Program-made: the position numbers and the translations under genes
Notes under the pieces: model-generated
Told to the model about the DNA's origin: nothing
What the model saw: only the letters and a program-made list of their open reading frames with translations
Databases searched by the model: none
Shown here: positions 3,534 to 29,013 of the stretch, in pieces
Layout of the letters: every line of letters starts with the position of its first letter
Numbering within the stretch: the first letter of the stretch is position 1
Source: a virus
Lineage: Duplodnaviria; Caudoviricetes
Direction: 5' to 3' (one strand)
Virus record (IMG/VR): IMGVR_UViG_3300032216_001891
Span: 64,001 to 128,000 of that record
DNA: 64,000 bases

Positions 3534-3881
3534 ATGAATGAAATTGAAAAACTCACCAGCGAAGTTCGTCGAGCAACTGACTATCAAATCAATAGGCAAA
3601 TTTTACGTGAAAAGATCTTAACTGATCTGCATGTACCATTCAATGGTGGGCTATTTTTGGTAACACAGGAATTAATTGCTTTTGTGTATGCCTGGCAGGG
3701 CACACAGGACATTTGGCCGTGGGACGGAGGTCAAGACATGTATATTGAAGATGTTTATCACAATCCCATACACATCGCCGATCGTAAAGAATTTTATAAA
3801 ATTATTTGCCAACACTATCAACAAGTGATGAACACATGGCACCAACAACATGCACACCTTAAAAAAATACGAAAAATCTAG
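3534..3881 (+). CDS. Hypothetical phage protein
   Basis: Start reassigned to ATG 3534 (MNEIEKL), just after the promoter. Confidence 0.7.
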   Translation: MNEIEKLTSEVRRATDYQINRQILREKILTDLHVPFNGGLFLVTQELIAFVYAWQGTQDIWPWDGGQDMYIEDVYHNPIHIADRKEFYKIICQHYQQVMNTWHQQHAHLKKIRKI

Positions 3882-4674
3882 AGGAGTAGTGGTATTTGCA
3901 TTCAACACTGCTACAGTGGATTATGTTGCCATAGCAGATTGCTCTAGTAGATTAACTACACAGCATTTACAGTTGCCCATTACACTGATCACTGACCACT
4001 CTGCTGACCCCAAATTTGCATACGATGAAATCATAAGAATTGATGCCATTGCCGGCAATGTTCGCAACGACTTGAACAATCGTTCAGTGGAATGGCGTAA
4101 TTTTGGTAGATACCTGGCATACCAACTATCGCCCTATGATGAAACTGTGTTGTTGGATACCGATTATCTAGTGCTGGACCACAGCATATCAAAACTGTGG
4201 AGTACAGAATTTGATTACCAATTGATGCATGTGAATAGAACAGCAAAGGGCATAGACGCCAGCGTCATGGGAGTGAATTCTTTGCCATTTGTTTGGGCCA
4301 CTGTGGTGCTATTTAGACGCAGTGAACGTGCTAGACTGTTTTTTGATTTAATCGGACGTGTACAAAGAAACTATTCTTACTACAAACAGTTGTACAGTAT
4401 ACACGAGACAAGTTATAGAAATGATTATGCTTTTGCCATAGCCAATATAATATTGAACGGGTACACAGTGAATGCATTGCAAGGCATTCCTTGGAGCATG
4501 TTCACAGTGGATGAGAAGATAGAACGGATGACGCTGGCGGATTCGCAAATTAGAATTCACCACCGAGACTACGCAATAGTTGTACCTCGCAGTAATATAC
4601 ATGTCATGGATAAAGAATATTTACAAAGCGATGATTTTCAACAACTAGTGGAGACTGTGTGTGAGTCGGCATAA
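3850..4674 (+). CDS. GT-A fold glycosyltransferase (GT8-like)
   Basis: SPYDETVLLDTDY (DxD motif), YRND(Y/F)AFAIA. Confidence 0.7.
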   Translation: MHTLKKYEKSRGVVVFAFNTATVDYVAIADCSSRLTTQHLQLPITLITDHSADPKFAYDEIIRIDAIAGNVRNDLNNRSVEWRNFGRYLAYQLSPYDETVLLDTDYLVLDHSISKLWSTEFDYQLMHVNRTAKGIDASVMGVNSLPFVWATVVLFRRSERARLFFDLIGRVQRNYSYYKQLYSIHETSYRNDYAFAIANIILNGYTVNALQGIPWSMFTVDEKIERMTLADSQIRIHHRDYAIVVPRSNIHVMDKEYLQSDDFQQLVETVCESA

Positions 4675-5512
4675 AGAACAGCAGGGATTCGTTACCTTTG
4701 CACAAAATACACAAGATGTAAATTACCTAGAACTGGCCTACCTACAGTGCTTGAATGTCAAGGCCACACAAAAGAACAACAGTTATGCTGTCATAGTGGA
4801 TGCTAAAACTCGTGCTCTAGTAGAAGACCGTCACTGCAACACTTTTGATTACATTGTTGAGCTGCCACAGGATTACGATGAGGTCTACGGCAACGGAAAA
4901 TTTGCCAATGAGTGCCAAGTGTTTACTCTTACTCCGTTTAAAGAAACTGTCAAGTTGGAAAGCGATCTGTTGTTTACACGAAGCATAGATCACTGGTGGA
5001 CCGCATTTAGATTACGCGATGTTTGTCTCAGCACCGGTGCTAAAAACTATCGCGGCATAATATCTGGTGTAAGAAAATATCGACAGTTGTTTGATGAAAA
5101 TAATTTACCCGATGTGTACAACGGCTTGATGTATTTTAGATATTCAAGACAGGCCGCAGATTTTTTCAACACAGCTCAATTAATTTCACAGCATTGGGAA
5201 TTTTATCAAGAGCAATTGAAGAACTGCAACGATGAAACCCCCAGCACAGATGTGATATACGCCATTGCCGCATTGACAGTGGGCACAGACTCTGTCACCA
5301 TGCCCACCATGGACTTTATAAATTTTGTACACATGAAGTCGGGCTTCAACGGCTGGAGTGACGCACAAAGTTGGTTAGACACAGTGGTGCATGAACGTGA
5401 CGGAGATGTTGTACGTATTAATAATTTGAATCAATATCATCCTGTACACTATCATGACAAAACCTACGCTACTAGAGAGTTAACAGAATATTATGAATCA
5501 AGAAGAACGTGA
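4661..5512 (+). CDS. GT-A fold glycosyltransferase-like protein, paralog of upstream gene
   Basis: TPFKETVKLESDLL, NGLMYF, C-terminal HYHDK. Confidence 0.65.
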   Translation: MSRHKEQQGFVTFAQNTQDVNYLELAYLQCLNVKATQKNNSYAVIVDAKTRALVEDRHCNTFDYIVELPQDYDEVYGNGKFANECQVFTLTPFKETVKLESDLLFTRSIDHWWTAFRLRDVCLSTGAKNYRGIISGVRKYRQLFDENNLPDVYNGLMYFRYSRQAADFFNTAQLISQHWEFYQEQLKNCNDETPSTDVIYAIAALTVGTDSVTMPTMDFINFVHMKSGFNGWSDAQSWLDTVVHERDGDVVRINNLNQYHPVHYHDKTYATRELTEYYESRRT

Positions 5513-5852
5513 TTTTTGGGCGGAAGTCGAAAGTTTAATCTGCCCTGCTCCTGCGGTTGAAATTGAATATAGATTGCACTACAACGAATCAGGTGAGATC
5601 GTCATGTGCAGCATGGTGGATCATCCCGAAACCTCTGCCCACGTTGTGGTATCAAAAGACGAATACGAACGTTACTTTGATTATTGTGTAGTCAAAGGGC
5701 AATTGACAAAGATAGACAAAAGTGCCAGCTATAGTGTAAAATTAACTAAATCCACTGCCGGCAGCCGGACAGTGAAAAACCACGCTGGCATTGTTTTAGA
5801 GCCGGGCGAATCCTACACAGAAACAGAATATTATGACCACAGAAATCATTGA
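5493..5852 (+). CDS. Hypothetical protein
   Basis: Coupled ORF in the operon. Confidence 0.65.
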   Translation: MNQEERDFWAEVESLICPAPAVEIEYRLHYNESGEIVMCSMVDHPETSAHVVVSKDEYERYFDYCVVKGQLTKIDKSASYSVKLTKSTAGSRTVKNHAGIVLEPGESYTETEYYDHRNH

Positions 5853-6735
5853 TGTTGCAGATTTAGACTGCATTTTTTTAACCTATGATGAGCCCAACCG
5901 AGAAATCAATTGGATTCGAATCCAAAACATGATACCATGGGCAAAACGAGTGGACGGAGTCAAGGGATCAGATGCAGCACACAAGGCCGCTGCTAGAGCC
6001 AGCGATACTGATCGTTTTATATTAATTGACGGCGACAACATTCCCGATCCTGATTTTTTTAATTTACAGTTGGCACTCAACGATGCCAATCGAGACTGTG
6101 TATTTAGATGGCGGGCTAGAAATCACATCAATGGACTCATGTACGGCAACGGTGGCGTCAGCTGTTGGACACAAGAGTTTGTGGAGACTATGTGTACACA
6201 CGAGGCCACTGATGGTGCCGCAGAAAATGATGTGGAGTTTTGTTTTTACCCCAATTATTGGGCTATGTCGGACTGCTATTCAACCACTTACCCCAATGCC
6301 TCACCATTTCAAGCATGGCGAGCTGGATTTCGTGAAGGTGTTAAAATGTGCTTGGATCGTGGTGCCAAACCCAGCTTGCAAGAATTTGAACGCCGGGTAC
6401 ACAATCGTAACTATGATCATTTGTGCATATGGCAAACGGTAGGCCTTGATGTTGACAACGGTTTTTATAGTATATTGGGTGCTAGAACAGGTACTTACAT
6501 GACCATGCTGACCGATTGGGATTATAAAAAAGTGCAGGATTTTTCTGTATTAGAAAAAATTTGGGAAAACAACAGCAAGGAAGATCAAGATGCTGATCGT
6601 TGCAGTGAACTAGGAGACATACTACGTCGCAAATTGGGATTGCCTATTGTAGACCTGTCGGCAGAGGCCAGCAGATTCTTTAAACATCATTACAAATCGC
6701 AGTTTAAAAATTTGGGACCAATGGTTCGTGAATAA
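5833..6735 (+). CDS. GT-A fold glycosyltransferase-like protein
   Basis: DCIFLTYDEP...GSDAAHKAAA...FILIDGDN (DxD), YGNGG, WRAGFREGVKM. Confidence 0.7.
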   Translation: MTTEIIDVADLDCIFLTYDEPNREINWIRIQNMIPWAKRVDGVKGSDAAHKAAARASDTDRFILIDGDNIPDPDFFNLQLALNDANRDCVFRWRARNHINGLMYGNGGVSCWTQEFVETMCTHEATDGAAENDVEFCFYPNYWAMSDCYSTTYPNASPFQAWRAGFREGVKMCLDRGAKPSLQEFERRVHNRNYDHLCIWQTVGLDVDNGFYSILGARTGTYMTMLTDWDYKKVQDFSVLEKIWENNSKEDQDADRCSELGDILRRKLGLPIVDLSAEASRFFKHHYKSQFKNLGPMVRE

Positions 6736-7408
6736 ACCTACTGTAATTGCTTTTTATCCTGGAGCCGGGGGTAATCGTTATCTTAGATATCTTACAGGTA
6801 AAGAATACCTAACCCCTGATATAACATATGATAATAAGTTCACAGATCAAAAATTTGAATTTAGGTATCTATTAGAAAAAGTAAAAGTAAATCAAGAATT
6901 TATACTAACACATTGTTTAAATTATTCTCACATCAATGAACAGTTAAATCCTAAAAAAGTAATTATGATAAATTCTGATTTTAAAAAAAGTCTAAGAAGA
7001 GAGTGGTGGTTGAATGGTAATAACTTATACAAACAAAAAGTACAATTAGTAAATCAAGATTGTATGTTGACTACTTATAATAATATTAAAGATCCAAATT
7101 GGCCTAATATTTTGACAGTTGAGGACATGCTTCCTGACCATAAAAAAGAAACAATGGAAAAGATGTCAAAATACAATGTACCAGAAGAATTAAATTCTGC
7201 TTGGGCAACTGTCAGCTGGCATCATGCATACTATGAAAAATATCCAGTTGAGTTGGGATACGCTGAAATTGCCAATGATCAAGAATTTGTAAATTTTATG
7301 GAATATGAATTAAACAAATATGATAATGAATACTTTAATTTTAGTTGGGATATATTTAATCGGTATGGACCAAACGCAACTATAAACGAGTTATATCTTG
7401 ACAAATAA
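6728..7408 (+). CDS. Hypothetical AT-rich protein (possible P-loop/sulfotransferase-like N-terminus)
   Basis: YPGAGGN after a beta strand; visibly lower GC than neighbours. Confidence 0.5.
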   Translation: MNKPTVIAFYPGAGGNRYLRYLTGKEYLTPDITYDNKFTDQKFEFRYLLEKVKVNQEFILTHCLNYSHINEQLNPKKVIMINSDFKKSLRREWWLNGNNLYKQKVQLVNQDCMLTTYNNIKDPNWPNILTVEDMLPDHKKETMEKMSKYNVPEELNSAWATVSWHHAYYEKYPVELGYAEIANDQEFVNFMEYELNKYDNEYFNFSWDIFNRYGPNATINELYLDK

Positions 7409-8786
7409 AAGTGATTTTATGTCTGCTGCGGAGCAGATGCAAGCAAAACTTGGCAACTCACTCTGCTTGGCCAAATGGCAACAGGTGAGTCTACATCTTC
7501 CCACCGGTCTCAACAATTCATGTTACCATCCTCCCTTGCATCCAATAGATGCCTCGGTGTTACAAGATAATCCCAGTGCATTACACAACACCGAGTATAA
7601 AAAATCTCAACGCATCATCATGTTGAAAAATGAAAAACCCAGTGAATGCAGTTATTGTTGGAACATAGAAGCACATGGGCAATTGAGCGATAGACATTAT
7701 CGTTCCAGCGAACCCTGGGCCGTAGAACATTACGAAGCAATCAAAAACTCTCGAGGAGACGAAGATGTTGTACCTAGTTATGTGGAAGTTAATTTTAATC
7801 ATGCCTGCAACTTGGCTTGTAGTTATTGTAGCCCCCAATTCAGTAGCACCTGGCAAGCTGAGGTTGATCGGTGGGGCGGTTTCCCTACTAGTCGTGTCCA
7901 TAATGATCCTAGCCACTTTGTGGGTCGTAATAGACCTATACCAGCTAGTCAAGATAATCCTTACGTAGATGCATTTTGGCGTTGGTGGCCAGAACTGTAT
8001 CCCAAACTGCGACACTTTAGAATGACCGGTGGTGAACCACTAATGGATCGGAACACTTATCGAGTGTTTGATTATGTGTTGGCCATGCCAAAACCCGATT
8101 TGCATTTAAATGTCACCAGCAACTTCAGTGTGGAACCGGTGCTGTTTGAACGATATTTGGGCTATGTAAAACAGTTATGTACAACACAGATAGAACATTT
8201 CATGCAGTATGTCAGCTTGGATTCTGGCAACATCAAACATGCAGAATATATCCGACACGGGTTGAATATGAATCGACTACATGAATATGTCAACAGATAC
8301 TTGACAGAAGTTCCCTATCGCAACAGTCTAACATTCATCATCACCATGAATAATTTAACTGTGCTGGGTCTACAACGTCAACTGCAATGGATACTGGATT
8401 TAAGAAAACGTCACAGTACCACATACCAACGTGTTTGGTTTGATACTCCCTTGCTACGTACACCCACATGGCAAAGTTTACAAATACTGCCACCGGTGTA
8501 TGTGGGTGTGTTAGAACGTGTGGCTGACTGGATGGAACTGCGTTTAGAAACAGCAGAAGATCCATTTCACGGATTCAAAGATTACGAAGTACAACGCCTA
8601 CGCAGAGACATAGCATGGATGCAGGAAGGTTGCAAGTTGGACCCCGACTATGTTAAACTGCAACGTGCAGACTTTTATCGTTTCTTCAACGAGCACGACA
8701 AAAGACGTCAAACAGATTTTTTAACTACTTTTCCCGAAATGCGTGAATTTTGGAAAGAATGCGAATACCATGCCAAAAATACATAA
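7398..8786 (+). CDS. Radical SAM protein with N-terminal auxiliary Fe-S (SPASM/twitch-like) domain
   Basis: CNLACSYC, TGGEP; N-terminal CLAKW...SCYH...CSYC. Confidence 0.9.
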   Translation: MTNKSDFMSAAEQMQAKLGNSLCLAKWQQVSLHLPTGLNNSCYHPPLHPIDASVLQDNPSALHNTEYKKSQRIIMLKNEKPSECSYCWNIEAHGQLSDRHYRSSEPWAVEHYEAIKNSRGDEDVVPSYVEVNFNHACNLACSYCSPQFSSTWQAEVDRWGGFPTSRVHNDPSHFVGRNRPIPASQDNPYVDAFWRWWPELYPKLRHFRMTGGEPLMDRNTYRVFDYVLAMPKPDLHLNVTSNFSVEPVLFERYLGYVKQLCTTQIEHFMQYVSLDSGNIKHAEYIRHGLNMNRLHEYVNRYLTEVPYRNSLTFIITMNNLTVLGLQRQLQWILDLRKRHSTTYQRVWFDTPLLRTPTWQSLQILPPVYVGVLERVADWMELRLETAEDPFHGFKDYEVQRLRRDIAWMQEGCKLDPDYVKLQRADFYRFFNEHDKRRQTDFLTTFPEMREFWKECEYHAKNT

Positions 8787-10125
8787 AGAAACAGATTTAG
8801 AATATCGACGCAGAGTAATTGACATCAAGAGTGAAAGCTTCTGCGGCGCGAAATGGTACAACGCCACTGTATGGCTGGGATCGGGTCAAACCACCAGTTG
8901 TCACCATCCCTTGCCACATCAAATAGACATCAACGAGATTCGTACAAACCCCAAAGCCATACACAACACACAAAAGAAAAAAATGGAACGCGAACAGATG
9001 CAACGCGGAGAACGGCCCGCCGGTTGCGAGTACTGTTGGAAAATAGAAGACATTGGAAGAGACAACATAAGTGATAGAGTTTACAAAACAGTTATATATT
9101 CAGACAAGGACTTAAGAGATGCATTCGCTCAGCCAGCCAGCACAGATGTGGATTTACAAACGCTTGAAATCGCTTTTGATCGCACATGCAATTTTGGGTG
9201 TAGTTACTGTAACCCTGCTTTCAGCAGCACTTGGGTTAAAGATATCAACTCCTTGGGTGCTTATACCGGTCTCGTTTCAGACGGCAGGAATCATTTTACT
9301 CATAATCATGCAAGTAGTCAGCTTTATCAATTTGGTGAGCGTAATCCTTACGTTGAAGCGTTCTTTGCATGGTGGGAATCAAGTCTCCACAGCACACTAC
9401 AGGAGCTTCGACTAACTGGAGGAGAACCTCTAATGAGTGCAGAAACTTGGAGATTGCTGGATTGGTTTAAACACAATAATGCGAATCCGGCAATGCGGCT
9501 TGCAATCAATAGCAACTTGGGCGCCAAACAGGAGTTAATAGATAGATTAATTGCAGCAACACAACATATTGAACATTTTCATTTGTACACCAGTAATGAA
9601 AGCATGGGTACACAAAGTGAATACATCAGAGACGGGCTGGTGTGGGACACGTGGATCAACACAGTGGATCGAGTATTGACCAATGGTAAAATAGAAGGAT
9701 TTCACATGATGTGTACCATCAATGCCCTGTGCCTAGATAGCCTTGACAGTTTCTTGGAGTGTTGCATGAACTGGAAACGCAAATATGGTGCTGACTTCCC
9801 CACCTTCTCACTAAATATATTGCGATTTCCAAGCTTTCAGAGCGCCTTGGTATTGCCGGACAGCATACGCAAGCAATATCAATCAAAGTTACAAACATGG
9901 CTAAATGCAAACACAGGGGATCCGTTACTGCATCAATTCGAAATCAATCAAGTACAGCGTTTGATAGATTATTTAGATGTAGTCAAAACTCCGCATGCGG
10001 GTGCAGCAGAGCAATCGGTATTACAACAAGACTTTAAACAATTTTACACACAATATGATCAACGCAGAAATAAAAACTTTGCAGAGACATTTCCCGACCT
10101 AGCAAAATGGTATAACTCACTATAA
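8770..10125 (+). CDS. Radical SAM protein with N-terminal auxiliary Fe-S domain
   Basis: CNFGCSYC, TGGEP; N-terminal CGAKW...SCHH...CEYC. Confidence 0.9.
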   Translation: MPKIHKETDLEYRRRVIDIKSESFCGAKWYNATVWLGSGQTTSCHHPLPHQIDINEIRTNPKAIHNTQKKKMEREQMQRGERPAGCEYCWKIEDIGRDNISDRVYKTVIYSDKDLRDAFAQPASTDVDLQTLEIAFDRTCNFGCSYCNPAFSSTWVKDINSLGAYTGLVSDGRNHFTHNHASSQLYQFGERNPYVEAFFAWWESSLHSTLQELRLTGGEPLMSAETWRLLDWFKHNNANPAMRLAINSNLGAKQELIDRLIAATQHIEHFHLYTSNESMGTQSEYIRDGLVWDTWINTVDRVLTNGKIEGFHMMCTINALCLDSLDSFLECCMNWKRKYGADFPTFSLNILRFPSFQSALVLPDSIRKQYQSKLQTWLNANTGDPLLHQFEINQVQRLIDYLDVVKTPHAGAAEQSVLQQDFKQFYTQYDQRRNKNFAETFPDLAKWYNSL

Positions 10126-11441
10126 TGGCAGATAACATAGAAGACTACTACAAAGATTACAATTACGGTGCACGTAAGCCGGTGTATATCAAAGAAGAAG
10201 CGTTACGCACAGATCAACTTGATAGACTGGTCAAGAGCAATGAGTTTTGTATGATTCCTTGGATACACATGCATGCTTTTCCCGATGGACGTGCCTATCC
10301 CTGTTGTTTAAGTGAGCCCGGACATCCCATTGGAAATCTTAAAACTCAAACCATGCGAGAGATTTGGAATGATGCACCGCTAAAACAAATGCGAGTCAAC
10401 ATGCTGAACAACACGCCGTCAAAAGAATGTACTAAATGTTACGAGCAAGAAAACAGTCGCTTGTTCAGCATGAGAGAAAGTGCCAACAAAAACTTTGGTC
10501 ACCACATTGGCCTAGTGGACAACACCCTGCCGGACGGTTCTTACGAAGATTTCAAACTGCGTTACTACGATATTCGCTTCAGCAACCTTTGCAATTTTGC
10601 ATGCAGAACCTGTGGTGGAATCTTCAGCAGTAACTGGTACAAAGACGAAAAAGCTGCAGGATGGGATCCCAAGCATCCACAGATAATGTATGCAGGCCGA
10701 GACAAGGGCGACATGTGGCAACAGATGCAAGAACACATTCCACATCTTGAACAGATCTATTGGGCCGGCGGCGAACCCTTGATCATGGAAGAGCACTGGA
10801 AAGTACTAGATGAGTTGGTTCGTCGTGAAATGTTTCATGTACGATTAATTTATAACACCAACTTCAGCGAACTTAAATTCAAAGGTCGAGACGTACTTGA
10901 AATGTGGAAACTGTTTGATTGTGTCAGTGTAGGAGCCAGTCTTGATGGCAGTTATGCTAGAGGAGAATACATACGTAAAGGTCAAGTGTGGAAAGAAACT
11001 GTAGAGAATCGTGAACGCATGTTGGCAATATGTCCCAATGTAGATTTTTATGTATCCAGTACTGTCAGCATGATGAATGTGTTGCATATCACAGACTTTC
11101 ACAGAGAGTGGGCGGATCTAGGTTTGTTACGTCCGATGGATTGGAATATTAATATACTGCAACACCCACATCGCTACAGAGTAGATGTACTGCCCAAACA
11201 TTTAAAACAACAGGCACAAGACAAAATTGAAGAACATCTGGCGTGGTTACGTCCCTTGGATACATTGTCTCGTGCCACATCGGGTTACGAGGGTGTTGTT
11301 AACTTTATGATGCAACAGGACAGCACACATGAACTAAAGAGTTTTTTCCATACAAACGATATTATTGATCGTGTACGCAATGAAGATTTTTTTAAAATAT
11401 TTCCGGAACTAAATGACATTCAGCAATACAAAACTACCTAG
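10125..11441 (+). CDS. Radical SAM protein with N-terminal twitch/SPASM domain
   Basis: CNFACRTC, AGGEP; CMIPW...PCC...IGNL...CTKC. Confidence 0.9.
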   Translation: MADNIEDYYKDYNYGARKPVYIKEEALRTDQLDRLVKSNEFCMIPWIHMHAFPDGRAYPCCLSEPGHPIGNLKTQTMREIWNDAPLKQMRVNMLNNTPSKECTKCYEQENSRLFSMRESANKNFGHHIGLVDNTLPDGSYEDFKLRYYDIRFSNLCNFACRTCGGIFSSNWYKDEKAAGWDPKHPQIMYAGRDKGDMWQQMQEHIPHLEQIYWAGGEPLIMEEHWKVLDELVRREMFHVRLIYNTNFSELKFKGRDVLEMWKLFDCVSVGASLDGSYARGEYIRKGQVWKETVENRERMLAICPNVDFYVSSTVSMMNVLHITDFHREWADLGLLRPMDWNINILQHPHRYRVDVLPKHLKQQAQDKIEEHLAWLRPLDTLSRATSGYEGVVNFMMQQDSTHELKSFFHTNDIIDRVRNEDFFKIFPELNDIQQYKTT

Positions 11442-14903: not shown

Positions 14904-15109
14904 TAACAGTAACGGTGCCTTATACACGAGACATAGTACTATATTCAGACATGCAAATATGGGCAATAGACCATTGCTCAAGTTTTTTAACATGTAATTT
15001 CATACACGACGAATTAGATAGAACCAATTGGCACACTGAGTTTCAGTTCTGTGACGAGGGTGAAGCGGCTTGGTTCAAATTAAAATGGGCAGGTTTAATC
15101 AATGAGTAA
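14900..15109 (+). CDS. Small hypothetical phage protein
   Basis: ATGA overlap with upstream stop; FxDExxAxWFKLKW ending. Confidence 0.6.
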   Translation: MITVTVPYTRDIVLYSDMQIWAIDHCSSFLTCNFIHDELDRTNWHTEFQFCDEGEAAWFKLKWAGLINE

Positions 15110-19806: not shown

Positions 19807-19814
19807 AGGACCCT

Positions 19815-20654: not shown

Positions 20655-20857
20655 GCGACACTGCTGTTCGCAGCCTAGCCAAAGCTGTCAGTTGGAGAGT
20701 AACTGGAACTGTTGATACATTTCTTATCAGTTGGTTGATCACCGGTGAAGTGCTGTTGGCATCGGGCATAGCACTGACTGAAATAATCACCAAGATATTT
20801 TTATTTTGGGCACACGAGCGAGTGTGGAATCGCGTTACTTGGGGACAGCAAGACTAA
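20651..20857 (+). CDS. Small membrane protein, DUF2061-like
   Basis: RSLAKAVSWR...HERVW. Confidence 0.8.
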   Translation: MSDTAVRSLAKAVSWRVTGTVDTFLISWLITGEVLLASGIALTEIITKIFLFWAHERVWNRVTWGQQD

Positions 20858-21950
20858 GATTAGTCTCCAACTCCTGCCAGCAGTGATTTAAAAACTCACT
20901 GCTGTAAAATAAATTGTAGTTGTGATTTAATACAGGAGTCATTTCTCTCAACATCATTTCAAGATCTCGATCGCTGTATCCGCAAATTTCTTCAATTACA
21001 TCCGCCACAGCAGTCATGCGTAGAATGGGATCTTCTATATCATCGTAACGTTCATCAAACCAACGACCAAATGTTCTGAAACCGTAACTGCGTAGGTACT
21101 CCAAGTTGTGTGCCGGCCCCACTAGCACAAATGGCATGCGGCTGACAATGGGTTTAAATATTTTTTCAGTTAAATGACATTTGCGATCCCAGTAACAAGT
21201 TTCTGTAACCACATAAACAAAACTTTCCTGTGTTTGTTCCACAGCACTTAATACAAAACTGTGATTGGGTATTGACTCGTGGTCTTGATAATCCACACGC
21301 AATGGCAACTGAACTCTGTCAATGTTGGCGATAGCTCGTTCTGCAAGAGCCGGGCATACGAATGTTGAATTTCTCAAGTTTTCTTGATACGTGCCACCGT
21401 CGGGACAGACATCGTTGTAACTTACATATCCGCACCCAAGTATATCGCGTTCCGCTAGTTCGCCAATCAATAAACTGCGGTACACTCGGGCGCCACTGGT
21501 TAGTCGATTAAATGTGATGTATTTTTTCTTTAACTTTCTTTGTTCGGGTGCAATTAATTGAGAGTTGTAATGATAGCCGCGAAACCAATCGTTTGCAGCA
21601 AAAGCATGATGAAAATAATAAACAACAGGGCAACTGTATCGTTCTTGTATTAGATCCACCGAGTTGGAATTTTTTTCGGTTGTAACCAATATAAACTCAT
21701 TGCCATGTAAAAAATTGTTGCATACGTGATCAAACAAGGGATAATTAAATTCTCCCAGTATGGGTTCTTGATCATAAAATACAAATAGTGGCCCACGTTT
21801 TCCTGGATAATGACTCATGTTGTTCATTAAGAATTCAAAATTTTCTGGCTGAGTTGATCCATAAGGTATTAGGTAAAGTAGTCTTGGATCTGTTACAATA
21901 GTGTTTAAATACGAAAAAATATTTTCGTAATGACTGTGGATATTATACAT
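20835..21950 (-). CDS. Putative GT-B-like glycosyltransferase
   Basis: VVTET...LTEKIFKPI...PFVL...GFRTF...DERYD; paralog of 12638-13621. Confidence 0.5.
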   Translation of the reverse strand: MYNIHSHYENIFSYLNTIVTDPRLLYLIPYGSTQPENFEFLMNNMSHYPGKRGPLFVFYDQEPILGEFNYPLFDHVCNNFLHGNEFILVTTEKNSNSVDLIQERYSCPVVYYFHHAFAANDWFRGYHYNSQLIAPEQRKLKKKYITFNRLTSGARVYRSLLIGELAERDILGCGYVSYNDVCPDGGTYQENLRNSTFVCPALAERAIANIDRVQLPLRVDYQDHESIPNHSFVLSAVEQTQESFVYVVTETCYWDRKCHLTEKIFKPIVSRMPFVLVGPAHNLEYLRSYGFRTFGRWFDERYDDIEDPILRMTAVADVIEEICGYSDRDLEMMLREMTPVLNHNYNLFYSSEFLNHCWQELETNLSLAVPK

Positions 21951-24900
21951 GTTTGATGTTTTTTATTGGGGAACTAAACCCGGTTTATTTGCTTTTGAAC
22001 AGCCTGCTGACAATTTAGATCATGCGGCTACCTTGTCACGAACAGGGCACTACTGGTATATTTATGGGGACAATGACTACACAGGATTTGATTTTGATTA
22101 TCAACCAGCGCCGTGGGAAAGTCAACACATACATGTTTGGCCCAGTCAATGGCAAAGAAACGGTGGAGTGTATCTAGCCAATCAAAACACAGTACACTGT
22201 AGAGAGTGGCATTTTAGGACTGAACAACAGGTGAGGAGACGACCCAACAGAGACTTATGGATCATACCCAGCAACACAGATGTCACAGCGTTTGATTTTT
22301 CGTGGCACCCCGATCCACTAGAGCCCGACTATGAATATCATTTCCCCACACAACACCAACCAGCCGGAGGTCCTGTGTATCAAGGATCAGCTGGTATAAA
22401 ATTATCACAAGATCAAACAGCTCGTGCTGTGCAGTTAATGGAACACTGGCATGTACCCCTTAATATTGATTCTGCTCAATTTGATTTTTCGTGGCACCCC
22501 AATCCACTGGACCCTGCTTATATCTATCAGTTTGCCACTCAGTGGTATGAAGAAGGTGGCCCAGTGTATACAGTTACCGGAGCCACTGAAGTCAAGTACA
22601 TGGATGAGCCTAGATCGCAGATAAACTCCAGCCGAGATAACTGGACAATACTGCATCCTATAATCGAAGACCGCTTTGATTGGAGTTGGCGTCCGCACCC
22701 AAAAGATCCTCCTTACACGTATGTGTTTGGTAATCAGTGGCACAGTCCCGAACGCATGCCCACAGTGGAATATCATGTCCCTGGAGCCACAGAACGCAAA
22801 TACATGAGCATGGTGGCCACCTTGGCACCTGATAAAACACATTGGAAATGTCTCGAGCATATTCAAGGTTTTGATTACAGCTGGGTGCCGGATCCGCTAG
22901 AGCCGCCTTATCGATATGTGTTTGGTAACCAGCATTGGCCTGCCACCATCATGCCCACGTTGACCTACACTGTGCCTGGAGCAACACAAGAAAAGTTTGT
23001 CGATGCTCCTGCGGCTCGATTGGCAGGAGGCATGGAGAACTGGAAAATATTTGAAGACATTGACCATGACCTATGGGACTGGACCTGGCGACCCAACCCG
23101 CGAGATCCTCCGTACACGTATGTATTTGGCAATCAATGGAATCCGCCCGAATACAAAGTTAGTGTACAGTACGAAGTAGAAGGTGCAACCGAACGCAAAT
23201 ACATGGAGTCGCGTACACAGCGGTTACCGCAACCGGAACAATTCAAAAACAAGTTACCAATAGACCAATTTGATTATTCATGGGAACCCAATCCGTTTGA
23301 CCCTCCATTCACCTATGTGTTTGGCAATCAATGGAACCAAGCCAGCCTAGAGCCCACAGTGGAATATCATGTCCCTGGAGCCACAGAAATAAAATACATT
23401 GATGATTTGGTGGCAACGGTGGCACCGTTGATGACCAATTGGGAGATACTTGACGATGTTAAACAGTTTGATTACAGCTGGCGTCCAAATCCCTTTGACC
23501 CACCTTACCGATATGTATTTGGTAACCAGTGGATGGCTCCCGAACAACGCCCTGCTGTGTGTTATGTTGCACCGGGGGCTGAAGAAATAAAATACATGGA
23601 TGAACCCAAGGCACAGCGACACGGCGACCCTGATAGGTTTGATACACATTACGATTGTGAATTTGACTACAGTTGGGAACCGGATCCGGGATCACCTCCT
23701 TACCGATATGTATTTGGTAACCAGTGGTATCCCGCCGAGATCATGCCCACAGTGGAGTATGCAGTGGCTGGAGCTACTGAACGCAAGTTTATGAGCGAGC
23801 CGCGGGCTAGATTGCTACCCTCAAGCGGCAACTGGATAACACACTGTGTGGCTGACTTTGATTATTCGTGGCAACCGGAACCCAAGAGCCCGCTGTATAT
23901 ATTTGTGTTTGGTAACCAACATTGGCCTGCACAAAAGATGCCCACTGTGGAATATCATATGCCCGGTGCAACTGAACGCAAATACATGGACCGGCCCAGG
24001 GCAGTTCTCGTACCCGATAAACAGTTATGGGGCATACCAGAGGAAGTCGATGAAAACAATATTGACTTTAGTTGGGTTCCCGATCCCGGCAATCCTCCTT
24101 ACATTTATCACTTTGGTACTGAGTTCCAAATGAGTGTGGGATTGACCTACACTGTGCCCGGAGCGACCGAGCCCAAGTTTGAAGGCGAAATACCACGTTT
24201 GGTCAAAGAACACGCAGCAATTGATGTGCTGGATATATTCTTTATTGATCGCAACAATGCCACAGCACAGTCACGCTTTGATCGATTAAAAAACCTCTAT
24301 CCTAAAATACAAAAAGTTCGCTTTGCTAATGACATGATGGCAACAATACAACGCTGTATCACCAAAGCTCGCACAAGTAAATTTTGGGTCATTAGTAGCG
24401 AATATAATTATGACCAATTTGATTTTACATGGCATGCTGAGCCGTGGCAAGGTTACATGACGCATGTGTTTCCAAGTCAGCATCAAAAGTGGAGCGACAC
24501 CTACTTGATCAACAAGTGGGAATTTGAGCGTCACAGCACTTGGGCCAAGTCCTTGGAAGAATTCCCCAACTTGAACTTTGTCAAAGATCAAACGGTAAAC
24601 AAGTCTGAGAATAGATATAATATTTACTATGTTGATCATGGCAACCAAGTCAGTCAGCATCAATACGATTACCTACGCAGTGATGTTGTTACCGATGTCG
24701 ACATCATCAAGACACGTTTTGTTGACAGCTACTTGGAAACATTCAAACGCATCATGTCCACAGCCGAAACTGAGTATGTTTGGATCATCAACAGCATTTG
24801 CGATTACACCTGCGGATTTGACTTTACTTGGGAACCGGAACCGTGGCAACGTGAGATGATACATGTATTCCCCAGTGACGCACAAAAGCGTGGCGATACA

Positions 24901-25974
24901 TTTCGTATACATGTGGAATCATTTAAACAACAAATGATTGAACTAGAACTGCTGGATTGGTTCCGCGTGATCAACTATGTTGAAGATCACGCAGTGCCTC
25001 GTTTTTCAATACCGGTACACTATTATGAATCGGACGATTTGGTCACTGAAATAAAAAACTACCAATTCCAAACTCCGTACGTGTTATTTACTAACCAAAA
25101 AGATATACAAATTGAAAGTTCAGAATGCTTGTGGAGTCCCCAAGACCGTGCAGTAGCCAGGTGTAGCCGGTCCGGTGCTACTGTGTTAGTACCCCGTGAC
25201 ATTAAGGTGGATTTGAAGTCACAAATCTACGATTATCCCTACATCAAGGACTCGGTTTATAGGATTAACGACTACTTTATTAACAAATTTCATCCGGGGT
25301 TAGATATCGTATACATTAGTAACGGAGAACCCGACGAACTACGTTGGTATGAACATTTATGCTACATGAGCAACACCACTGACATAGAATGGGTGCGTGG
25401 TGTCAACGGTAGAACAGCCGCCTATCAAGAAGCTGCACGTAGAAGCCGCACACCTTGGTTCTTTGCTGTGTTTGCCAAATTGGAAGTTTTAGGCAACGAG
25501 TTCCCTTGGTTTGATTGGATGCCGGACTATTTCCAAGAACCCAAACACTATATCTTCAACAGCCGTAATCCTGTGAATGGCTTGGAATATGGTCACCAAG
25601 GTGTAATAGCATATAACAAGAGATTGGTATTAGAGAATAATGCTCCAGGAATTGACTTTACCTTGAGTCAACCACATGAATCAGTTCCCATACTGTCTGG
25701 TGTAGCACACTTCAATCAAGATGCTTGGATGACTTGGAGGACTGCGTTCCGCGAAGTGGTCAAACTCAAACATTTCATGGCGGTAGAACCCACAGTGGAA
25801 ACAGAACATAGATTAAACACTTGGCTGACCGTGGCCGAAGGCAATTATGCTGAATACTGTTTGGCCGGTGCCCGGGATGCTGTGGGGTATTACAATGAAG
25901 TTGCGGGAGATTATGAACTACTAAAACTGAGTTTTGACTGGGCCTGGCTGAAACAACGTTTTGACAATAAATAA
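21949..25974 (+). CDS. 1341-aa tandem-repeat protein with degenerate GT-A-like domains
   Basis: About 10 repeats FDYSWxPxPxxPPYxYVFGNQW...PTVEYxVPGATExKY; C-terminal domain similar to 5833-6735. Confidence 0.8.
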   Translation: MFDVFYWGTKPGLFAFEQPADNLDHAATLSRTGHYWYIYGDNDYTGFDFDYQPAPWESQHIHVWPSQWQRNGGVYLANQNTVHCREWHFRTEQQVRRRPNRDLWIIPSNTDVTAFDFSWHPDPLEPDYEYHFPTQHQPAGGPVYQGSAGIKLSQDQTARAVQLMEHWHVPLNIDSAQFDFSWHPNPLDPAYIYQFATQWYEEGGPVYTVTGATEVKYMDEPRSQINSSRDNWTILHPIIEDRFDWSWRPHPKDPPYTYVFGNQWHSPERMPTVEYHVPGATERKYMSMVATLAPDKTHWKCLEHIQGFDYSWVPDPLEPPYRYVFGNQHWPATIMPTLTYTVPGATQEKFVDAPAARLAGGMENWKIFEDIDHDLWDWTWRPNPRDPPYTYVFGNQWNPPEYKVSVQYEVEGATERKYMESRTQRLPQPEQFKNKLPIDQFDYSWEPNPFDPPFTYVFGNQWNQASLEPTVEYHVPGATEIKYIDDLVATVAPLMTNWEILDDVKQFDYSWRPNPFDPPYRYVFGNQWMAPEQRPAVCYVAPGAEEIKYMDEPKAQRHGDPDRFDTHYDCEFDYSWEPDPGSPPYRYVFGNQWYPAEIMPTVEYAVAGATERKFMSEPRARLLPSSGNWITHCVADFDYSWQPEPKSPLYIFVFGNQHWPAQKMPTVEYHMPGATERKYMDRPRAVLVPDKQLWGIPEEVDENNIDFSWVPDPGNPPYIYHFGTEFQMSVGLTYTVPGATEPKFEGEIPRLVKEHAAIDVLDIFFIDRNNATAQSRFDRLKNLYPKIQKVRFANDMMATIQRCITKARTSKFWVISSEYNYDQFDFTWHAEPWQGYMTHVFPSQHQKWSDTYLINKWEFERHSTWAKSLEEFPNLNFVKDQTVNKSENRYNIYYVDHGNQVSQHQYDYLRSDVVTDVDIIKTRFVDSYLETFKRIMSTAETEYVWIINSICDYTCGFDFTWEPEPWQREMIHVFPSDAQKRGDTFRIHVESFKQQMIELELLDWFRVINYVEDHAVPRFSIPVHYYESDDLVTEIKNYQFQTPYVLFTNQKDIQIESSECLWSPQDRAVARCSRSGATVLVPRDIKVDLKSQIYDYPYIKDSVYRINDYFINKFHPGLDIVYISNGEPDELRWYEHLCYMSNTTDIEWVRGVNGRTAAYQEAARRSRTPWFFAVFAKLEVLGNEFPWFDWMPDYFQEPKHYIFNSRNPVNGLEYGHQGVIAYNKRLVLENNAPGIDFTLSQPHESVPILSGVAHFNQDAWMTWRTAFREVVKLKHFMAVEPTVETEHRLNTWLTVAEGNYAEYCLAGARDAVGYYNEVAGDYELLKLSFDWAWLKQRFDNK
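22285..24183 (+). repeat. Intragenic array of ~195-200-bp (about 65-aa) repeats
   Basis: Identical 37-mer at 22758-22794 and 23352-23388; identical 30-mer at 23503-23532 and 23698-23727. Confidence 0.85.
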
Positions 25975-25978
25975 TAAT

Positions 25979-26647
25979 ATGAGATCCAGTGAATTTATAA
26001 CATCCAACAGAGTAGCAGATTTAACTCCTGCTCAATTTAAACGTGTCTTTGAAAGTATTATTGACCCTAATATTATACTAGAAGCAGACATTCCGCCGCA
26101 GGCTGCCCAACAGGTTAAACAGGCATCTGGGTCAACTCTACAAGCTATTATGTCTCAACCAGCGGCCGCTGTACAAAACTTTGATGCAAAAATAGATCAA
26201 CTAGAAAAACAGGCCTCTGCTAAATTTGGCCCACAAGTGATGCAACATATAAGAAACTACCGACGCTGGGCTAAAAGAAATCCATTGACGCAGGCCGCAA
26301 TTTTAGCTGCTGTTAGTGTTGTAGTAAGTTTAGTAGCTCCTGAAGGTGCCGCTGGCGTGGCAATTACTGCCATTGCTGCAGGGTTTTTGCAAACAGTTGA
26401 TGAATTGGTATTGGGTAAAAAAGCCAGCGAAGCAGTTTCACGCGGAGTAGAAACCGGCGCTGTAGTTGGAGGTATAGGTACTTTTCTAAATTGGGCTGCA
26501 GATACAGAACTGGTAAAAAGTGCCGCACATTGGTTTGGTGATGTAGTTGGCGATGTAGCAAGGAATACTCACGCAGTCAAAGCAGTTGCTAAGGTAGGAG
26601 TTAATGCTCTTGCCAATCGAGTGCAAAGTCCTTTTACTTCGTATTAA
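25979..26647 (+). CDS. Putative late, virion-internal protein
   Basis: ATAAATA at 25967-25973 just before the ATG; MRSSEFIT N-terminus; Ala/Gly/Val-rich hydrophobic helices. Confidence 0.55.
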   Translation: MRSSEFITSNRVADLTPAQFKRVFESIIDPNIILEADIPPQAAQQVKQASGSTLQAIMSQPAAAVQNFDAKIDQLEKQASAKFGPQVMQHIRNYRRWAKRNPLTQAAILAAVSVVVSLVAPEGAAGVAITAIAAGFLQTVDELVLGKKASEAVSRGVETGAVVGGIGTFLNWAADTELVKSAAHWFGDVVGDVARNTHAVKAVAKVGVNALANRVQSPFTSY

Positions 26648-26659
26648 CGCAAATACTAG

Positions 26660-27004
26660 ATGCGTATAAATGAAATTTCCGTACCTCAATATAAAGAAAT
26701 AGAATTTGTCTGTGCCAATGCCGAGCATCCTGACGCTACAGATCCCGCTGTACAACGAAAACTGTATAGAGAATTACAAAAAATCCCCGGAGTAATACCT
26801 TTATATCAAGATTGGACCGATTACAGTGAAGGTCAATATAGTTTAAGTGCTATATATAAAGACCGTGCTGTTCGTGGTAAAATTTTATCACTGGCTCGGC
26901 AGTTGGGCGTTGATGTTGACTTGGAACAAACAGTGGATGGGGACTATGTTGATCGTGCCTTAACAGGTAGTCACGAAGGACAAATTAACGCAAGTAATTC
27001 TTAA
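26660..27004 (+). CDS. Putative late protein
   Basis: CAAATA motif just upstream; MRINEI N-terminus. Confidence 0.55.
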   Translation: MRINEISVPQYKEIEFVCANAEHPDATDPAVQRKLYRELQKIPGVIPLYQDWTDYSEGQYSLSAIYKDRAVRGKILSLARQLGVDVDLEQTVDGDYVDRALTGSHEGQINASNS

Positions 27005-28091
27005 CGCTATTAGCGACCCGTTCAACTTCTAAATCGGTGAGTTCAGGATAAATCGGTAGGCTGATTGCTTCTCTCGAAAACGCTGTAGATTCTCTAAACA
27101 ATTCTCTAGCATAGTCAATATAGTCATAGCCTACGGGCAATTCAAACAAGGGCGTGTCATAATGGAAACGTGAGTCAATTTCACAACTCTGTAAGTAATC
27201 ACGCAGGCCATGACGTTCACTCAGCCGTATTACAAATTTACTCCAAGCCGAAGTTACGTGTTCTCCGGGTAATACTACATCTACATATTCAGCGAGTTCT
27301 TGTGTGTAGTATTCGGCGATCTCCTGTCTACGTGTCTGCCAAGCATCAAAATATTTGAGTTTGACCAACATCTGAGTTGCATCGCTTTCGCTCATTTTAC
27401 TGTTGGTGCCAAATCCTTGATGCCCCATGTGCTTGCCATTGTCACGCAGGTCCATTACATCTTCATACATGACTTGACTGTCGGTGAGTACCATGCCACC
27501 CGATCCGTAGTTGTTTAGATTCTTAGTGGGATCAAAACTCAACACACTGATGTCACCGAGACTGCCCGAGGGTTGATCCTTGTACCTGGCACCAAAACTC
27601 TGTGCAGCATCTTCTATCACACGTATGTTGCTGTTGAAAAACTCTGTTTGCAGTCTAAATCTATCATAGTCTACAACATGCCCAAACAGGTTGGCATACA
27701 TGATACAGTTAACACCAGCTCCGGTTAGGGCCATGTCCATGCTTTCTAAATCTATTAGTGCTGCATCATCAGTGTCGCAAAACACCGGAGTATTGCCGGT
27801 ATACAGCACCGAGTTAATAGTGGCTGCAAAACTCAAGGTGGGAATTAACACACGAGATTCCTGTGGCAATGTCACTTGTTGTGCAAAAATCAATCCCTGT
27901 GTGGCACTGTTCACTGCAACTGCATATTCTCGACCACATCGACGGGCTATGGCTGTTTCAAACTGTTGAGTACATTCACCATCCAACACCTGCCCGGATC
28001 GGTACACTTGATCCACGGCATCAAGTATCTCTTCACGCAGAGTCAAGTATTGACGATCAACGCCGAAGAAGGGTATCTGTGATCCACTCAT
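26985..28091 (-). CDS. DegT/DnrJ/EryC1/StrS PLP-dependent sugar aminotransferase
   Basis: VNSAT, IEDAAQSFGA, SFDPTKNL (PLP lysine), SLPIYPEL; start MSGSQIPFFG. Confidence 0.9.
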   Translation of the reverse strand: MSGSQIPFFGVDRQYLTLREEILDAVDQVYRSGQVLDGECTQQFETAIARRCGREYAVAVNSATQGLIFAQQVTLPQESRVLIPTLSFAATINSVLYTGNTPVFCDTDDAALIDLESMDMALTGAGVNCIMYANLFGHVVDYDRFRLQTEFFNSNIRVIEDAAQSFGARYKDQPSGSLGDISVLSFDPTKNLNNYGSGGMVLTDSQVMYEDVMDLRDNGKHMGHQGFGTNSKMSESDATQMLVKLKYFDAWQTRRQEIAEYYTQELAEYVDVVLPGEHVTSAWSKFVIRLSERHGLRDYLQSCEIDSRFHYDTPLFELPVGYDYIDYARELFRESTAFSREAISLPIYPELTDLEVERVANSVKNYLR

Positions 28092-29013
28092 GATATTTTT
28101 TAAATCCTGACTCAATGTCTGTGGTGCCACGATAACCAAAGTCTTCGCCAGCACGTATGTTACTTAATGTTCCTCTTGATGGGAATCTAGGATTGGCATC
28201 GACAATTTTTATTCTGCCACCACCGGCTATGGCGACAGCCAATTCAGCAGCCTCTACCAAACTTCTGGCCTCACCTCTAGTTATGTTGTATGTTCTACCA
28301 CTGCTGTTGAAATTGACAGCGGCACGTACAATACCCTCCACTACATCATCCACATAGGTGAAATCCAAACGTTCTCTAGCACCACACACAGTTAATTCTT
28401 CATTGCGTATGGCCGAGAGCAAGAATCTACTTACAACTCTATCAACAACATCATGCGGGCCATACACAGCACTGGGCCGAATCACAACATGGTCAATGCC
28501 AGCTGTTCTACAAAGATCACGTGTGAGTGTTTCACCAGCGAGTTTTAATATTCCGTAGATGCCGCGTGGTCGGCACTGCATATCTTCATAGGCCAAGGGA
28601 GCAAAGTCACCGTACACCATACTGCTACTGATATAGACAAATCTACGCAAGCGAACCTGTTCACTGGCACGTAGTAGATTTATCAAGCCCTGTGTCAGCA
28701 CTTGACTGCCTTCAGTGGGATTCAAATCCACGGCCTTGGCTCGAGGATATGCTGCACAGTGTATAACCACATCCGGGCGACATTCTTCAAACGCAGTTAC
28801 GACATAATTGTAGTTTCTAATGTCTACATTGTGTATGCTCTGTGTTTGAATACGATCAAGACGTTGTTGATGTAGGGGAGTTAATTCTGATTCAGGTATA
28901 ATACCATAGTTGGTGAAGTTGTCCAGCACACAGACTTCATGTCCTTGCTGTTCCAATAGTCGTACTATGTTGTGTCCAATAAATCCAGCACCGCCGGTTA
29001 CTAGAAATTTCAT
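28057..29013 (-). CDS. NAD-dependent nucleotide-sugar epimerase/dehydratase
   Basis: TGGAGFIG, SSSMVYG, YGILK (YxxxK), DFTYVDD. Confidence 0.92.
   Translation of the reverse strand: MKFLVTGGAGFIGHNIVRLLEQQGHEVCVLDNFTNYGIIPESELTPLHQQRLDRIQTQSIHNVDIRNYNYVVTAFEECRPDVVIHCAAYPRAKAVDLNPTEGSQVLTQGLINLLRASEQVRLRRFVYISSSMVYGDFAPLAYEDMQCRPRGIYGILKLAGETLTRDLCRTAGIDHVVIRPSAVYGPHDVVDRVVSRFLLSAIRNEELTVCGARERLDFTYVDDVVEGIVRAAVNFNSSGRTYNITRGEARSLVEAAELAVAIAGGGRIKIVDANPRFPSRGTLSNIRAGEDFGYRGTTDIESGFKKYHEWITDTLLRR

Follow-up and report, generated by a model that had tools for sequence, protein, structure and literature searches.

A candidate glycan-building and tailoring module with five radical SAM enzymes in uncultured jumbo phages

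What would a tailed phage build with five radical S-adenosylmethionine (SAM) enzymes, a carbamoyltransferase, a sugar aminotransferase and a series of glycosyltransferase-like proteins encoded in one run behind its fibre genes? The question is raised by a 64,000-nucleotide stretch of DNA (the window), which comprises bases 64001-128000 of one 154.5-kb IMG/VR-type virus record and in which a block ending at position 29013 had been read, in an original prediction made from the letters alone, as a glycan-building and tailoring island. Our follow-up puts the probability at roughly 0.55 that this block is a module of soluble enzymes that builds and heavily tailors a sugar structure in the infected cell, with an acceptor that is most likely phage-made, namely a fibre or virion protein or a peptide ending in DPFIYK that is encoded within the block. 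The enzyme families, the GT-A fold of one of the transferases and the polysaccharide context of bacterial relatives speak for the predicted island, while the specific chemistry that had been proposed for it holds at the level of analogy only. Genes other than R1-R5 are referred to below by their first coordinate.

Five radical SAM enzymes in a fixed gene order

The five radical SAM enzymes (R1 to R5) lie on one strand and were assigned to the NCBIfam family NF033640 (N_Twi_rSAM):

7398-8786, plus strand: R1, radical SAM protein with N-terminal twitch domain
8743-10125, plus strand: R2, radical SAM protein with N-terminal twitch domain
10125-11441, plus strand: R3, radical SAM protein with N-terminal twitch domain
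11413-12648, plus strand: R4, radical SAM protein with N-terminal twitch domain
13614-14903, plus strand: R5, radical SAM protein with N-terminal twitch domain

As the original prediction had it, there are five such enzymes, and all of them exceed the curated NF033640 cut-off of 170 bits by a wide measure (283-401 bits, E 5e-84 to 5e-120). Every cluster ligand and the SAM motif are kept in all five: the four N-terminal cysteines, CxxxCxxC and GGEP are invariant (C42, C61, C102 and C105; C156-x3-C160-x2-C163; G215-G-E-P), and Pfam puts SPASM at residues 8-106, N-terminal to Radical_SAM. The four-Cys N-terminal auxiliary domain and both motifs are shared with the family as catalogued, but in the phages they belong to a constant set of five orthogroups of ancient divergence. 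Pairwise identity among R1-R5 is only 22-27%, and since each paralogue forms its own clade (orthogroup support of 98-100 in a FastTree tree), the set appears to be old and non-redundant. No paper on NF033640 was found in the literature. The Campylobacter phages CP220 and CPt10 have 11-12 radical SAM genes (PMC2853527), which probably belong to another family because a search with R5 did not match these phages.

BtrN was the only solved radical SAM protein to match, and its similarity was not significant (E 0.086-0.12) and confined to residues 31-102, the twitch region. The parallel with BtrN, BtrR and TobZ on which the original prediction had leaned is reduced to an analogy between classes: twitch radical SAM enzyme, DegT aminotransferase and NodU/TobZ-family carbamoyltransferase are alike, but the twitch domain of BtrN is C-terminal, that of the phage proteins N-terminal, and the phage module has no cyclitol synthase. 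An identity as BtrN-type sugar dehydrogenases was rejected on the position of the auxiliary domain and on the non-significant similarity. A diffusible aminoglycoside-like small molecule, made in infection as an antibiotic or signal, is barely plausible for the same locus. Radical SAM, DegT, carbamoyltransferase and glycosyltransferase genes do co-occur as they do in aminoglycoside clusters, and the weak BtrN match (E 0.09) points the same way, but it covers the twitch region only, no 2-deoxy-scyllo-inosose synthase, exporter or resistance gene was found, and the block is placed and conserved with virion genes.

Conservation was followed by scanning IMG/VR with R3 (98 contigs) and with the C-terminus of the giant protein 21949 (139 contigs), 80 loci being kept per scan. 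The linkage among genes that the original prediction had proposed to look for in related large phages is present: both 80-locus sets show the entire order between 1186 and 29013, running fibre, 3456, 3850, 4661, 5493, 5833, R1-R5, 15102, SGNH, peptide, SGNH, and on through carbamoyltransferase, kinase-nucleotidyltransferase, 20835 (minus strand), giant protein, DegT (minus) and short-chain dehydrogenase/reductase (SDR, minus). DegT follows the giant gene in 65 of 80 loci and SDR in 64 of 80. Identity in relatives is 61-74% for the radical SAM genes, for 5833 and for the carbamoyltransferase, compared with about 40% for the fibre genes; the variable members are the accessory genes 6728, 19117, 25961 and 26660. 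The block is a fixed, widespread module of hundreds of phages and not a private island, and jumbo phages of 320-354 kb, 92-100% complete, are among its carriers. Among isolated phages, a nucleotide search of INPHARED gave no match, and a protein search with R5 gave weak matches only, to the Ralstonia jumbo phage RsoM2USA and two Vibrio phages.

Fibre genes with all or part of the module are also present on nine contigs of metagenome-assembled genomes (MAGs; L083-L091). Their labels are Legionellales, Verrucomicrobia TMED56, Rickettsiales, Betaproteobacteria TMED41, Flavobacterium, Porticoccaceae, Polynucleobacter and Haliscomenobacter. Most likely these contigs come from phages and were assigned to bacterial MAGs in binning, and the labels may hint at hosts or may reflect contamination.

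In bacteria, family NF033640 also occurs in surface-polysaccharide loci of Bacteroidota, Bdellovibrionota and Alphaproteobacteria, and it is this setting that supports sugar chemistry for the phage genes. In Henriciella (L164:297-21007), a member of the Crocinitomicaceae (L107:1038-20455) and one of the Saprospiraceae (L100:3597-12602), the genes adjoin a polysaccharide-type cassette, apparently undescribed, made up of a UbiA-GT4-SGNH fusion of about 1080 aa, up to six PhyH dioxygenases, carbamoyltransferase, SDR, UDP-glucose dehydrogenase, DegT, GT2, sulfotransferase and ABC-2 transporter. It is common to about 13-15 of 51 large bacterial loci. Homologues of the phage SGNH protein 17002 (SGNH363) also stand next to radical SAM genes in bacterial loci; profile hidden Markov models of the 5833, 15102, 3850, 4661 and 20835 families found nothing there. 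Phage module and bacterial cassette have in common the radical SAM family, carbamoyltransferase, SGNH, SDR and DegT, whereas the membrane (UbiA), export (ABC-2) and PhyH parts are found in the bacterial cassette, which is without the phage glycosyltransferase-like families and the peptide.

A contig of the Bacteriovoracaceae MAG UBA6144 (DIVA01000093.1; L161:6055-18051) has eight NF033640 paralogues in a row. This chromosomal array adjoins rplU, rpmA and obg, a Sel1-like secreted protein of 110 aa is encoded inside it, and it supplies sisters of the phage R1, R2, R4 and R5 in the FastTree tree.

Candidate transferases, tailoring enzymes and sugar supply

If the product is a sugar structure, its assembly would call on the following transferase candidates, each given with its main basis:

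3850-4674, plus strand: GT8-like (glycogenin-like) GT-A candidate, paralogue of 4661 (hhalign)
4661-5512, plus strand: GT8-like (glycogenin-like) GT-A candidate (PDB profile search)
5833-6735, plus strand: GT-A-fold (GT2-like) transferase with invariant D66-G-D68 (AlphaFold2 (AF2) model, Foldseek)
12638-13621, plus strand: GT10-like candidate between R4 and R5 (C-terminus common with 20835)
20835-21950, minus strand: 371-aa member of a large phage family that has no annotation, GT10-like lead only (metagenomic homologues)
21949-25974, plus strand: 1341-aa protein of about 65-aa repeats followed by a 5833-homologous C-terminal domain (repeat positions, BLASTP)

The claim of at least five glycosyltransferase-like genes fared unevenly. 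It has support for 5833 in its fold and, weakly, for 3850 and 4661 in their profiles, the C-terminus of the giant protein is a 5833 homologue, and 12638 and 20835 are left with a weak GT10 lead only. The 5833 model, built from 25 orthologues (pLDDT 83), has GT-A glycosyltransferases, GT2 included, as all of its best Foldseek matches (E about 2e-4, probability 0.98-1.0), and VIA gave Z scores of 8-9.8 over residues 5-156. D66-G-D68 is invariant in 25 of 25 orthologues; among 73 orthologues identity is 47-79% (median 71%), and there was no Pfam match at E 0.01. Pfam gave no match for 3850 or 4661 either. The two families are homologous by hhalign (probability 98.6%, E 6e-16), and D103-x-D105 (3850) and E100-x-D102 (4661) are invariant within them. 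Against the PDB, the 4661 profile matched glycogenin-1 and -2 at E 0.005-0.05 over the N-terminal ~108 residues only, the 3850 profile matched glycogenin at E 1.5 only.

The C-terminal region is common to 12638 and 20835 (E 7e-11). More than 4682 metagenomic homologues of 20835 were found, none of them annotated; the nearest named Atlas clusters are GT10, with a feature score of 0.78-0.80 that is at chance level, and neither Pfam on 22 orthologues nor a PDB profile search returned anything. The predicted giant repeat protein was borne out: within the first 760 residues of its 1341 aa lie 11 repeats of about 65 aa (FDxSWxPxP...), and the protein has two degenerate copies besides. Residues 1118-1340, the last ~220, are homologous to 5833 (BLASTP E 5e-10), with the DxD position not conserved; further GT-A domains in the middle of the protein were not supported. 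The repeat part differs in length and repeat count among relatives, and it is the C-terminal part that is found in the 139 IMG/VR contigs. Genes 20835 and 21949 diverge with overlapping start codons, so that each promoter must be inside the other gene, and in every relative 20835 keeps its place on the minus strand.

Tailoring and sugar supply are represented by six further genes:

16159-16929, plus strand: SGNH-like protein 1 (hhalign)
17002-17670, plus strand: SGNH-like protein 2, DUF6071-like (PDB profile, Pfam)
17651-19126, plus strand: NodU/CmcH/TobZ-family carbamoyltransferase (Pfam)
19788-20654, plus strand: APS-kinase-like P-loop kinase fused to an NMNAT-like HxGH nucleotidyltransferase (Pfam, PDB profile)
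26985-28154, minus strand: DegT/PseC-like sugar aminotransferase (Pfam PF01041)
28057-29013, minus strand: GalE-like SDR of the nucleoside diphosphate (NDP)-sugar type (Pfam E 8e-48)

The carbamoyltransferase was predicted correctly, both of its Pfam domains lying far above cut-off (Carbam_trans_C E 3e-48, 164 bits against 27; Carbam_trans_N E 2e-37, 127 bits against 24). Its 127 bits against the NodU equivalog cut-off of 1000 make it a member of the family and not NodU itself, and it is present in 72 and 67 related loci of the two sets. Two of the three SGNH proteins that had been called remain, the third, 19117, finding no support (hhalign probability 0.8%). Both fall under the Pfam GDSL cut-offs. 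The 17002 family profile matches GDSL and thioesterase I proteins of the PDB at E 3e-5 over blocks I-II only, and Pfam gives DUF6071 at E 2e-5; G9, S11, G15 and H201/H207 are invariant in this family, the positions tested being the GDS nucleophile, the block II glycine and the C-terminal histidine. The same columns (GDS, Gly, C-terminal His) are invariant in the 16159 family, which is homologous to that of 17002 (hhalign E 2e-31).

The APS-kinase-like domain of the predicted fusion is real (Pfam APS_kinase, 29 bits, above cut-off; PDB profile E 1e-4 over residues 8-104), but its partner is an NMNAT-like nucleotidyltransferase (NMN adenylyltransferase, E 2.5e-5 over residues 171-228) and not an ATP sulfurylase, and a PAPS synthase-type enzyme (APS kinase plus ATP sulfurylase) was rejected on this ground. 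In many relatives the two halves are separate genes. The suggestion of a sulfated glycan has no sulfotransferase in the island behind it. DegT and SDR were both named correctly, the former with 258 bits to PF01041 (E 2e-76, residues 39-384) and PseC as its nearest NCBIfam equivalog (168 bits against a cut-off of 423), the latter below the NCBIfam equivalog cut-offs. By eye the SDR has the GalE-like SSM...YxxxK signature and not the TDE of dehydratases, and it has the look of an epimerase and not of a 4,6-dehydratase.

DegT and SDR are the last genes of a minus-strand block with thyX and DHFR; that they lie on the opposite strand had been overlooked. This co-orientation would suit a pathway in which kinase, pyridoxal phosphate (PLP) enzyme, radical SAM enzymes and glycosyltransferases add groups to a modified base of the phage DNA, and P-loop kinases and PLP enzymes do occur in thymidine hypermodification pathways. 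We nevertheless regard DNA hypermodification as very improbable: no base hydroxymethylase, DpdA/TGT or glycosylase-fold transferase is encoded in the island, the bacterial contexts are exported-polysaccharide loci, and the module sits in the structural block.

As a pathway to a sugar structure, the genes can be ordered as follows. DegT, the GalE-like SDR and the kinase-nucleotidyltransferase would supply activated, aminated sugars, which the GT-A-type proteins (3850, 4661, 5833, the giant C-terminus and perhaps 12638 and 20835) would attach and extend. Each of the five N-twitch radical SAM enzymes may then make a different C-H-activating edit (oxidation, epimerisation, deoxygenation or methylation, for example), the carbamoyltransferase would add O-carbamoyl groups, and the SGNH proteins would add or remove acyl groups.

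The remaining genes within the block are these:

5493-5852, plus strand: conserved 119-aa protein (found in 67 loci)
6728-7408, plus strand: 226-aa accessory protein between 5833 and R1, private to this phage
15102-16181, plus strand: 359-aa conserved protein, cyclophilin-like beta-barrel with a helical-bundle insert (AF2, VIA)
19117-19806, plus strand: 229-aa accessory protein (present in three loci only)
20651-20857, plus strand: 68-aa DUF2061 membrane protein, its start overlapping the kinase stop (ATGA; Pfam E 2e-21)
25961-26647, plus strand: small accessory gene with two hydrophobic segments by hydropathy scan (closest relatives only)
26660-27004, plus strand: small accessory gene (closest relatives only)

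Searches of Pfam and PHROG gave no family for 5493. For 6728 there was no counterpart in 160 related loci and no Pfam match, and a role as sulfotransferase was rejected for want of similarity to the sulfotransferase of L107. The 15102 model (pLDDT 87) matches many cyclophilin-fold chains at a middling VIA Z of 7-8.5; nothing came from Foldseek, a PDB sequence profile, the Atlas or Pfam on 25 orthologues. The DUF2061 gene, overlooked in the original prediction, is present in 32 of 80 loci.

Fibre genes, a 33-codon peptide gene and the acceptor

Where the sugar would be attached is a question of the phage and of what surrounds the module. The source is an uncultured giant phage of lake or ocean. 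Its record, about 44% complete by CheckV, contains the gene for a major capsid protein of T4 type (Pfam Gp23, E 5e-96), and its closest full-length relatives are of 320-354 kb (92-100% complete, one with terminal repeats); on this capsid and these relatives it is a fragment of a jumbo T4-like phage, the true genome of which is probably about 350 kb. The candidate acceptors and the structural genes next to the module are:

1-1161, plus strand: 652-aa PA14-like structural protein rich in glycine, C-terminal part only, context outside the module (Pfam, PHROG)
1186-2571, plus strand: fibre-like protein with C-terminal intramolecular-chaperone (Peptidase_G2) domain (PHROG 14394, Pfam)
2581-3480, plus strand: Ser/Thr-rich (28%) fibre-like protein, candidate glycan acceptor, 3' end overlapping the next gene (composition)
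3456-3881, plus strand: 141-aa protein bridging the fibre gene and the first glycosyltransferase-like gene (found in 66 loci)
16904-17005, plus strand: basic 33-residue peptide with C-terminal DPFIYK, candidate scaffold, substrate or subunit (conservation)

That three tail genes precede the block received weak support only, from a PHROG virion-protein match and the intramolecular-chaperone domain, with a baseplate-hub protein upstream. The first of the listed proteins matched PHROG tail and head structural families and, under the cut-off in both cases, Pfam Gly_rich_2 (E 6.5e-5) and PA14 (E 0.0045). The second, syntenic in 55 of 82 loci searched, matched PHROG 14394 (virion structural protein, E 2.5e-14) and Peptidase_G2 (E 2e-4, under cut-off). 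Pfam and PHROG searches gave no family for 2581-3480, which has homologues in 63 loci at about 39% identity, and none for 3456-3881. Large structural genes lie further upstream, encoding the 1462-aa baseplate-hub protein (Phage_base_V and VanY) and proteins of 1129 and 4301 aa, so that the block is positioned at the end of the baseplate/fibre region and corresponds to the 'host recognition cluster' of T4-like aquatic phages (PMC7029224). The 4301-aa open reading frame (ORF; G000:C1:47538-60443, 3.5 kb upstream of the window) has a faint FG-GAP match only and is one of a series of very long structural genes (934, 1462, 1129 and 4301 aa).

The glycosyltransferase-like genes overlap the end of the fibre-gene operon, and the packing continues throughout: of 22 successive junctions on the plus strand, 19 are overlaps of 1-44 nt, in keeping with the predicted translational coupling of most genes. 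The sole large gap (14903-15102) has a terminator-like hairpin and T-run at 14960-14980. A 69-aa ORF at 14900-15109 was rejected as a gene because it is not conserved in relatives. The late-promoter motif TATAAATA was not found in the window, and sigma-70-like sites there were at chance level.

By hydropathy scan, no block enzyme has a transmembrane segment, and in five relatives that are 92-100% complete no Bac_transf, ABC-2 permease or WecA-type gene scored above cut-off. Soluble enzymes, the lack of lipid-carrier initiation and export genes in relatives, and the overlap with the fibre operon together favour a cytoplasmic, phage-made acceptor over the host surface, comparable to those of mycobacteriophage virions (PMC10527164) and giant-virus fibrils (PMC10117803). 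If the enzymes instead altered lipopolysaccharide (LPS), capsule or S-layer glycan of the host via its lipid carrier, flippase and ligase, they would block superinfection or keep progeny off debris. For this possibility, which we consider doubtful though one to be taken seriously, it can be said that glycosyltransferases of the pelagimyophage host-recognition cluster have been published as modifying the host surface (PMC7029224), that GT8 enzymes often act on LPS core, and that bacterial NF033640 genes lie in exported-polysaccharide loci with ABC-2 transporters. It is set back, beyond the solubility of all phage enzymes and the lack of an initiating phosphoglycosyl transferase, exporter or ligase in the five relatives, by the place of the genes in the structural-gene strand block, overlapping the fibre operon and not with early genes. 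Moreover, the module is kept at 60-75% identity across phages with fibres diverged to about 40%, a divergence from which the relatives probably infect different hosts; such constancy is a poor fit to a host-specific surface chemistry.

The 33-codon gene had been overlooked in the original prediction. It overlaps the end of SGNH-1 (16159), and its own stop overlaps the start of SGNH-2 (17002). It is the best-conserved gene of the block, with full-length matches in 126 related loci (89 distinct DNA sequences), a nearly invariant C-terminal YRKKLKELRKRDPFIYK and a stop codon always directly after K33. Summed entropies of 18.7, 12.2 and 38.4 at codon positions 1, 2 and 3 place the variation mostly in the third position, a pattern of codon use from which the gene is judged to be under purifying selection. 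A diverged copy, also ending in DPFIYK, is found just 5' of SGNH and carbamoyltransferase genes in RsoM2USA (L001:19041-19136), and on contig L098 an ORF ending in DPFIYR abuts the carbamoyltransferase start. In the 126 related loci and in RsoM2USA a candidate small precursor gene is co-conserved with putative maturases; the peptide is absent from bona fide bacterial loci with NF033640 and carbamoyltransferase genes.

These observations raise the possibility of a pathway resembling those of peptides that are made on ribosomes and modified after translation (RiPPs), in which the peptide serves as substrate or carrier. In one version the radical SAM enzymes and the carbamoyltransferase would act on its C-terminal Tyr/Lys before the glycosyltransferases add sugars, to give a peptide-derived molecule on the lines of glycosylated mycofactocin or of the tyrosine priming seen with glycogenin. 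In the other, the Tyr or Lys of the DPFIYK end would prime or anchor a chain begun by the glycogenin-like enzymes, and the five radical SAM enzymes, the carbamoyltransferase and the SGNH enzymes would then modify it. Twitch/SPASM radical SAM enzymes (PqqE, MftC) commonly mature small peptides with C-terminal tyrosines, two glycogenin-like genes are at hand, the peptide is under apparent purifying selection, and even RsoM2USA, a distant phage, has it in the company of radical SAM, SGNH and carbamoyltransferase genes. On the other side, the bacterial loci manage without it, an RRE-type leader-binding domain was not seen in general Pfam scans (no search aimed at RRE was made), and the strongly basic, helical-looking peptide could as well be a small subunit or nucleic-acid binder. 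We therefore hold both the peptide as carrier and the pathway built on it to be distinctly unlikely in this specific form.

Several observations count against a sugar structure as the product, or against a phage-made acceptor. About 30 of the 51 bacterial loci are without sugar genes near the radical SAM gene, as is the eight-paralogue array of the Bacteriovoracaceae, and twitch/SPASM enzymes are more often peptide maturases. The 5833 fold ties at equal VIA Z with the nucleotidyltransferases IspD, MobA and glucose-1-phosphate (G1P) cytidylyltransferase, several of the 'glycosyltransferases' are without a Pfam match, and 12638 and 20835 are without family identity. Lipid carrier and export could come from the host. 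Synteny continues past the module into thyX, DHFR and further genes, so that part of the linkage may be general collinearity of genomes in the clade, and no isolated phage in INPHARED has the module, RsoM2USA holding a small subset (radical SAM, peptide, SGNH and carbamoyltransferase genes).

Known glycosylation systems and biological meaning

As in clusters for virion glycosylation, virus-encoded NDP-sugar enzymes and glycosyltransferases are clustered together here. Giant viruses (Megavirinae, chlorovirus) have autonomous clusters of 6-33 genes for the glycosylation of virions or fibrils (PMC10117803, PMC8456856, PMC9614988). These resemble the phage module in their NDP-sugar enzymes (DegT-type, SDR), their several GT-A enzymes including multi-domain ones, their location near structural genes and their comparable size, but they serve in eukaryotic hosts, their glycans are solved whereas here there are genes only, and they are without radical SAM array, carbamoyltransferase, SGNH pair or DPFIYK peptide. 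Mycobacteriophages are described as glycosylating capsid and tail proteins in the cytoplasm with their own glycosyltransferases (Freeman 2023, PMC10527164, cited in PMC11256854). As far as that account goes, one to few glycosyltransferase genes act there, against about 25 genes here, with no radical SAM or carbamoyl tailoring, and lineage and host are others. A further known system is the host-recognition cluster that T4-like pelagimyophages and cyanomyophages carry, a large variable region in which tail fibres lie with glycosyltransferases (GT8 being the commonest) and 'radical SAM cassettes' (PMC7029224); it is described at the level of annotation and read as modifying the host O-chain, and the five-enzyme set, the peptide and the conservation of the module are not defined there. 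What distinguishes the present module from known virus-encoded glycosylation systems is the uncharacterised set of five radical SAM enzymes and the conserved micro-peptide, and our findings agree with the original statement that no characterised pathway of this size is known in a tailed phage.

Should a virion glycan be what the module makes, no glycosylation system known from a tailed phage would come near it in elaboration, and it would also be a common one, recurring in hundreds of jumbo phages of lakes and oceans. It would bear on host recognition, on how virions avoid sticking to debris and on resistance to grazing or enzymes, and it would place the uncharacterised radical SAM family NF033640 in a biological setting and supply possible substrates for it. 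If instead the peptide proved to be the carrier, the phages would encode a peptide-primed glycoconjugate pathway without a characterised counterpart, and the first NF033640 substrates would be at hand; the 33-residue DPFIYK peptide is an easy experimental handle.

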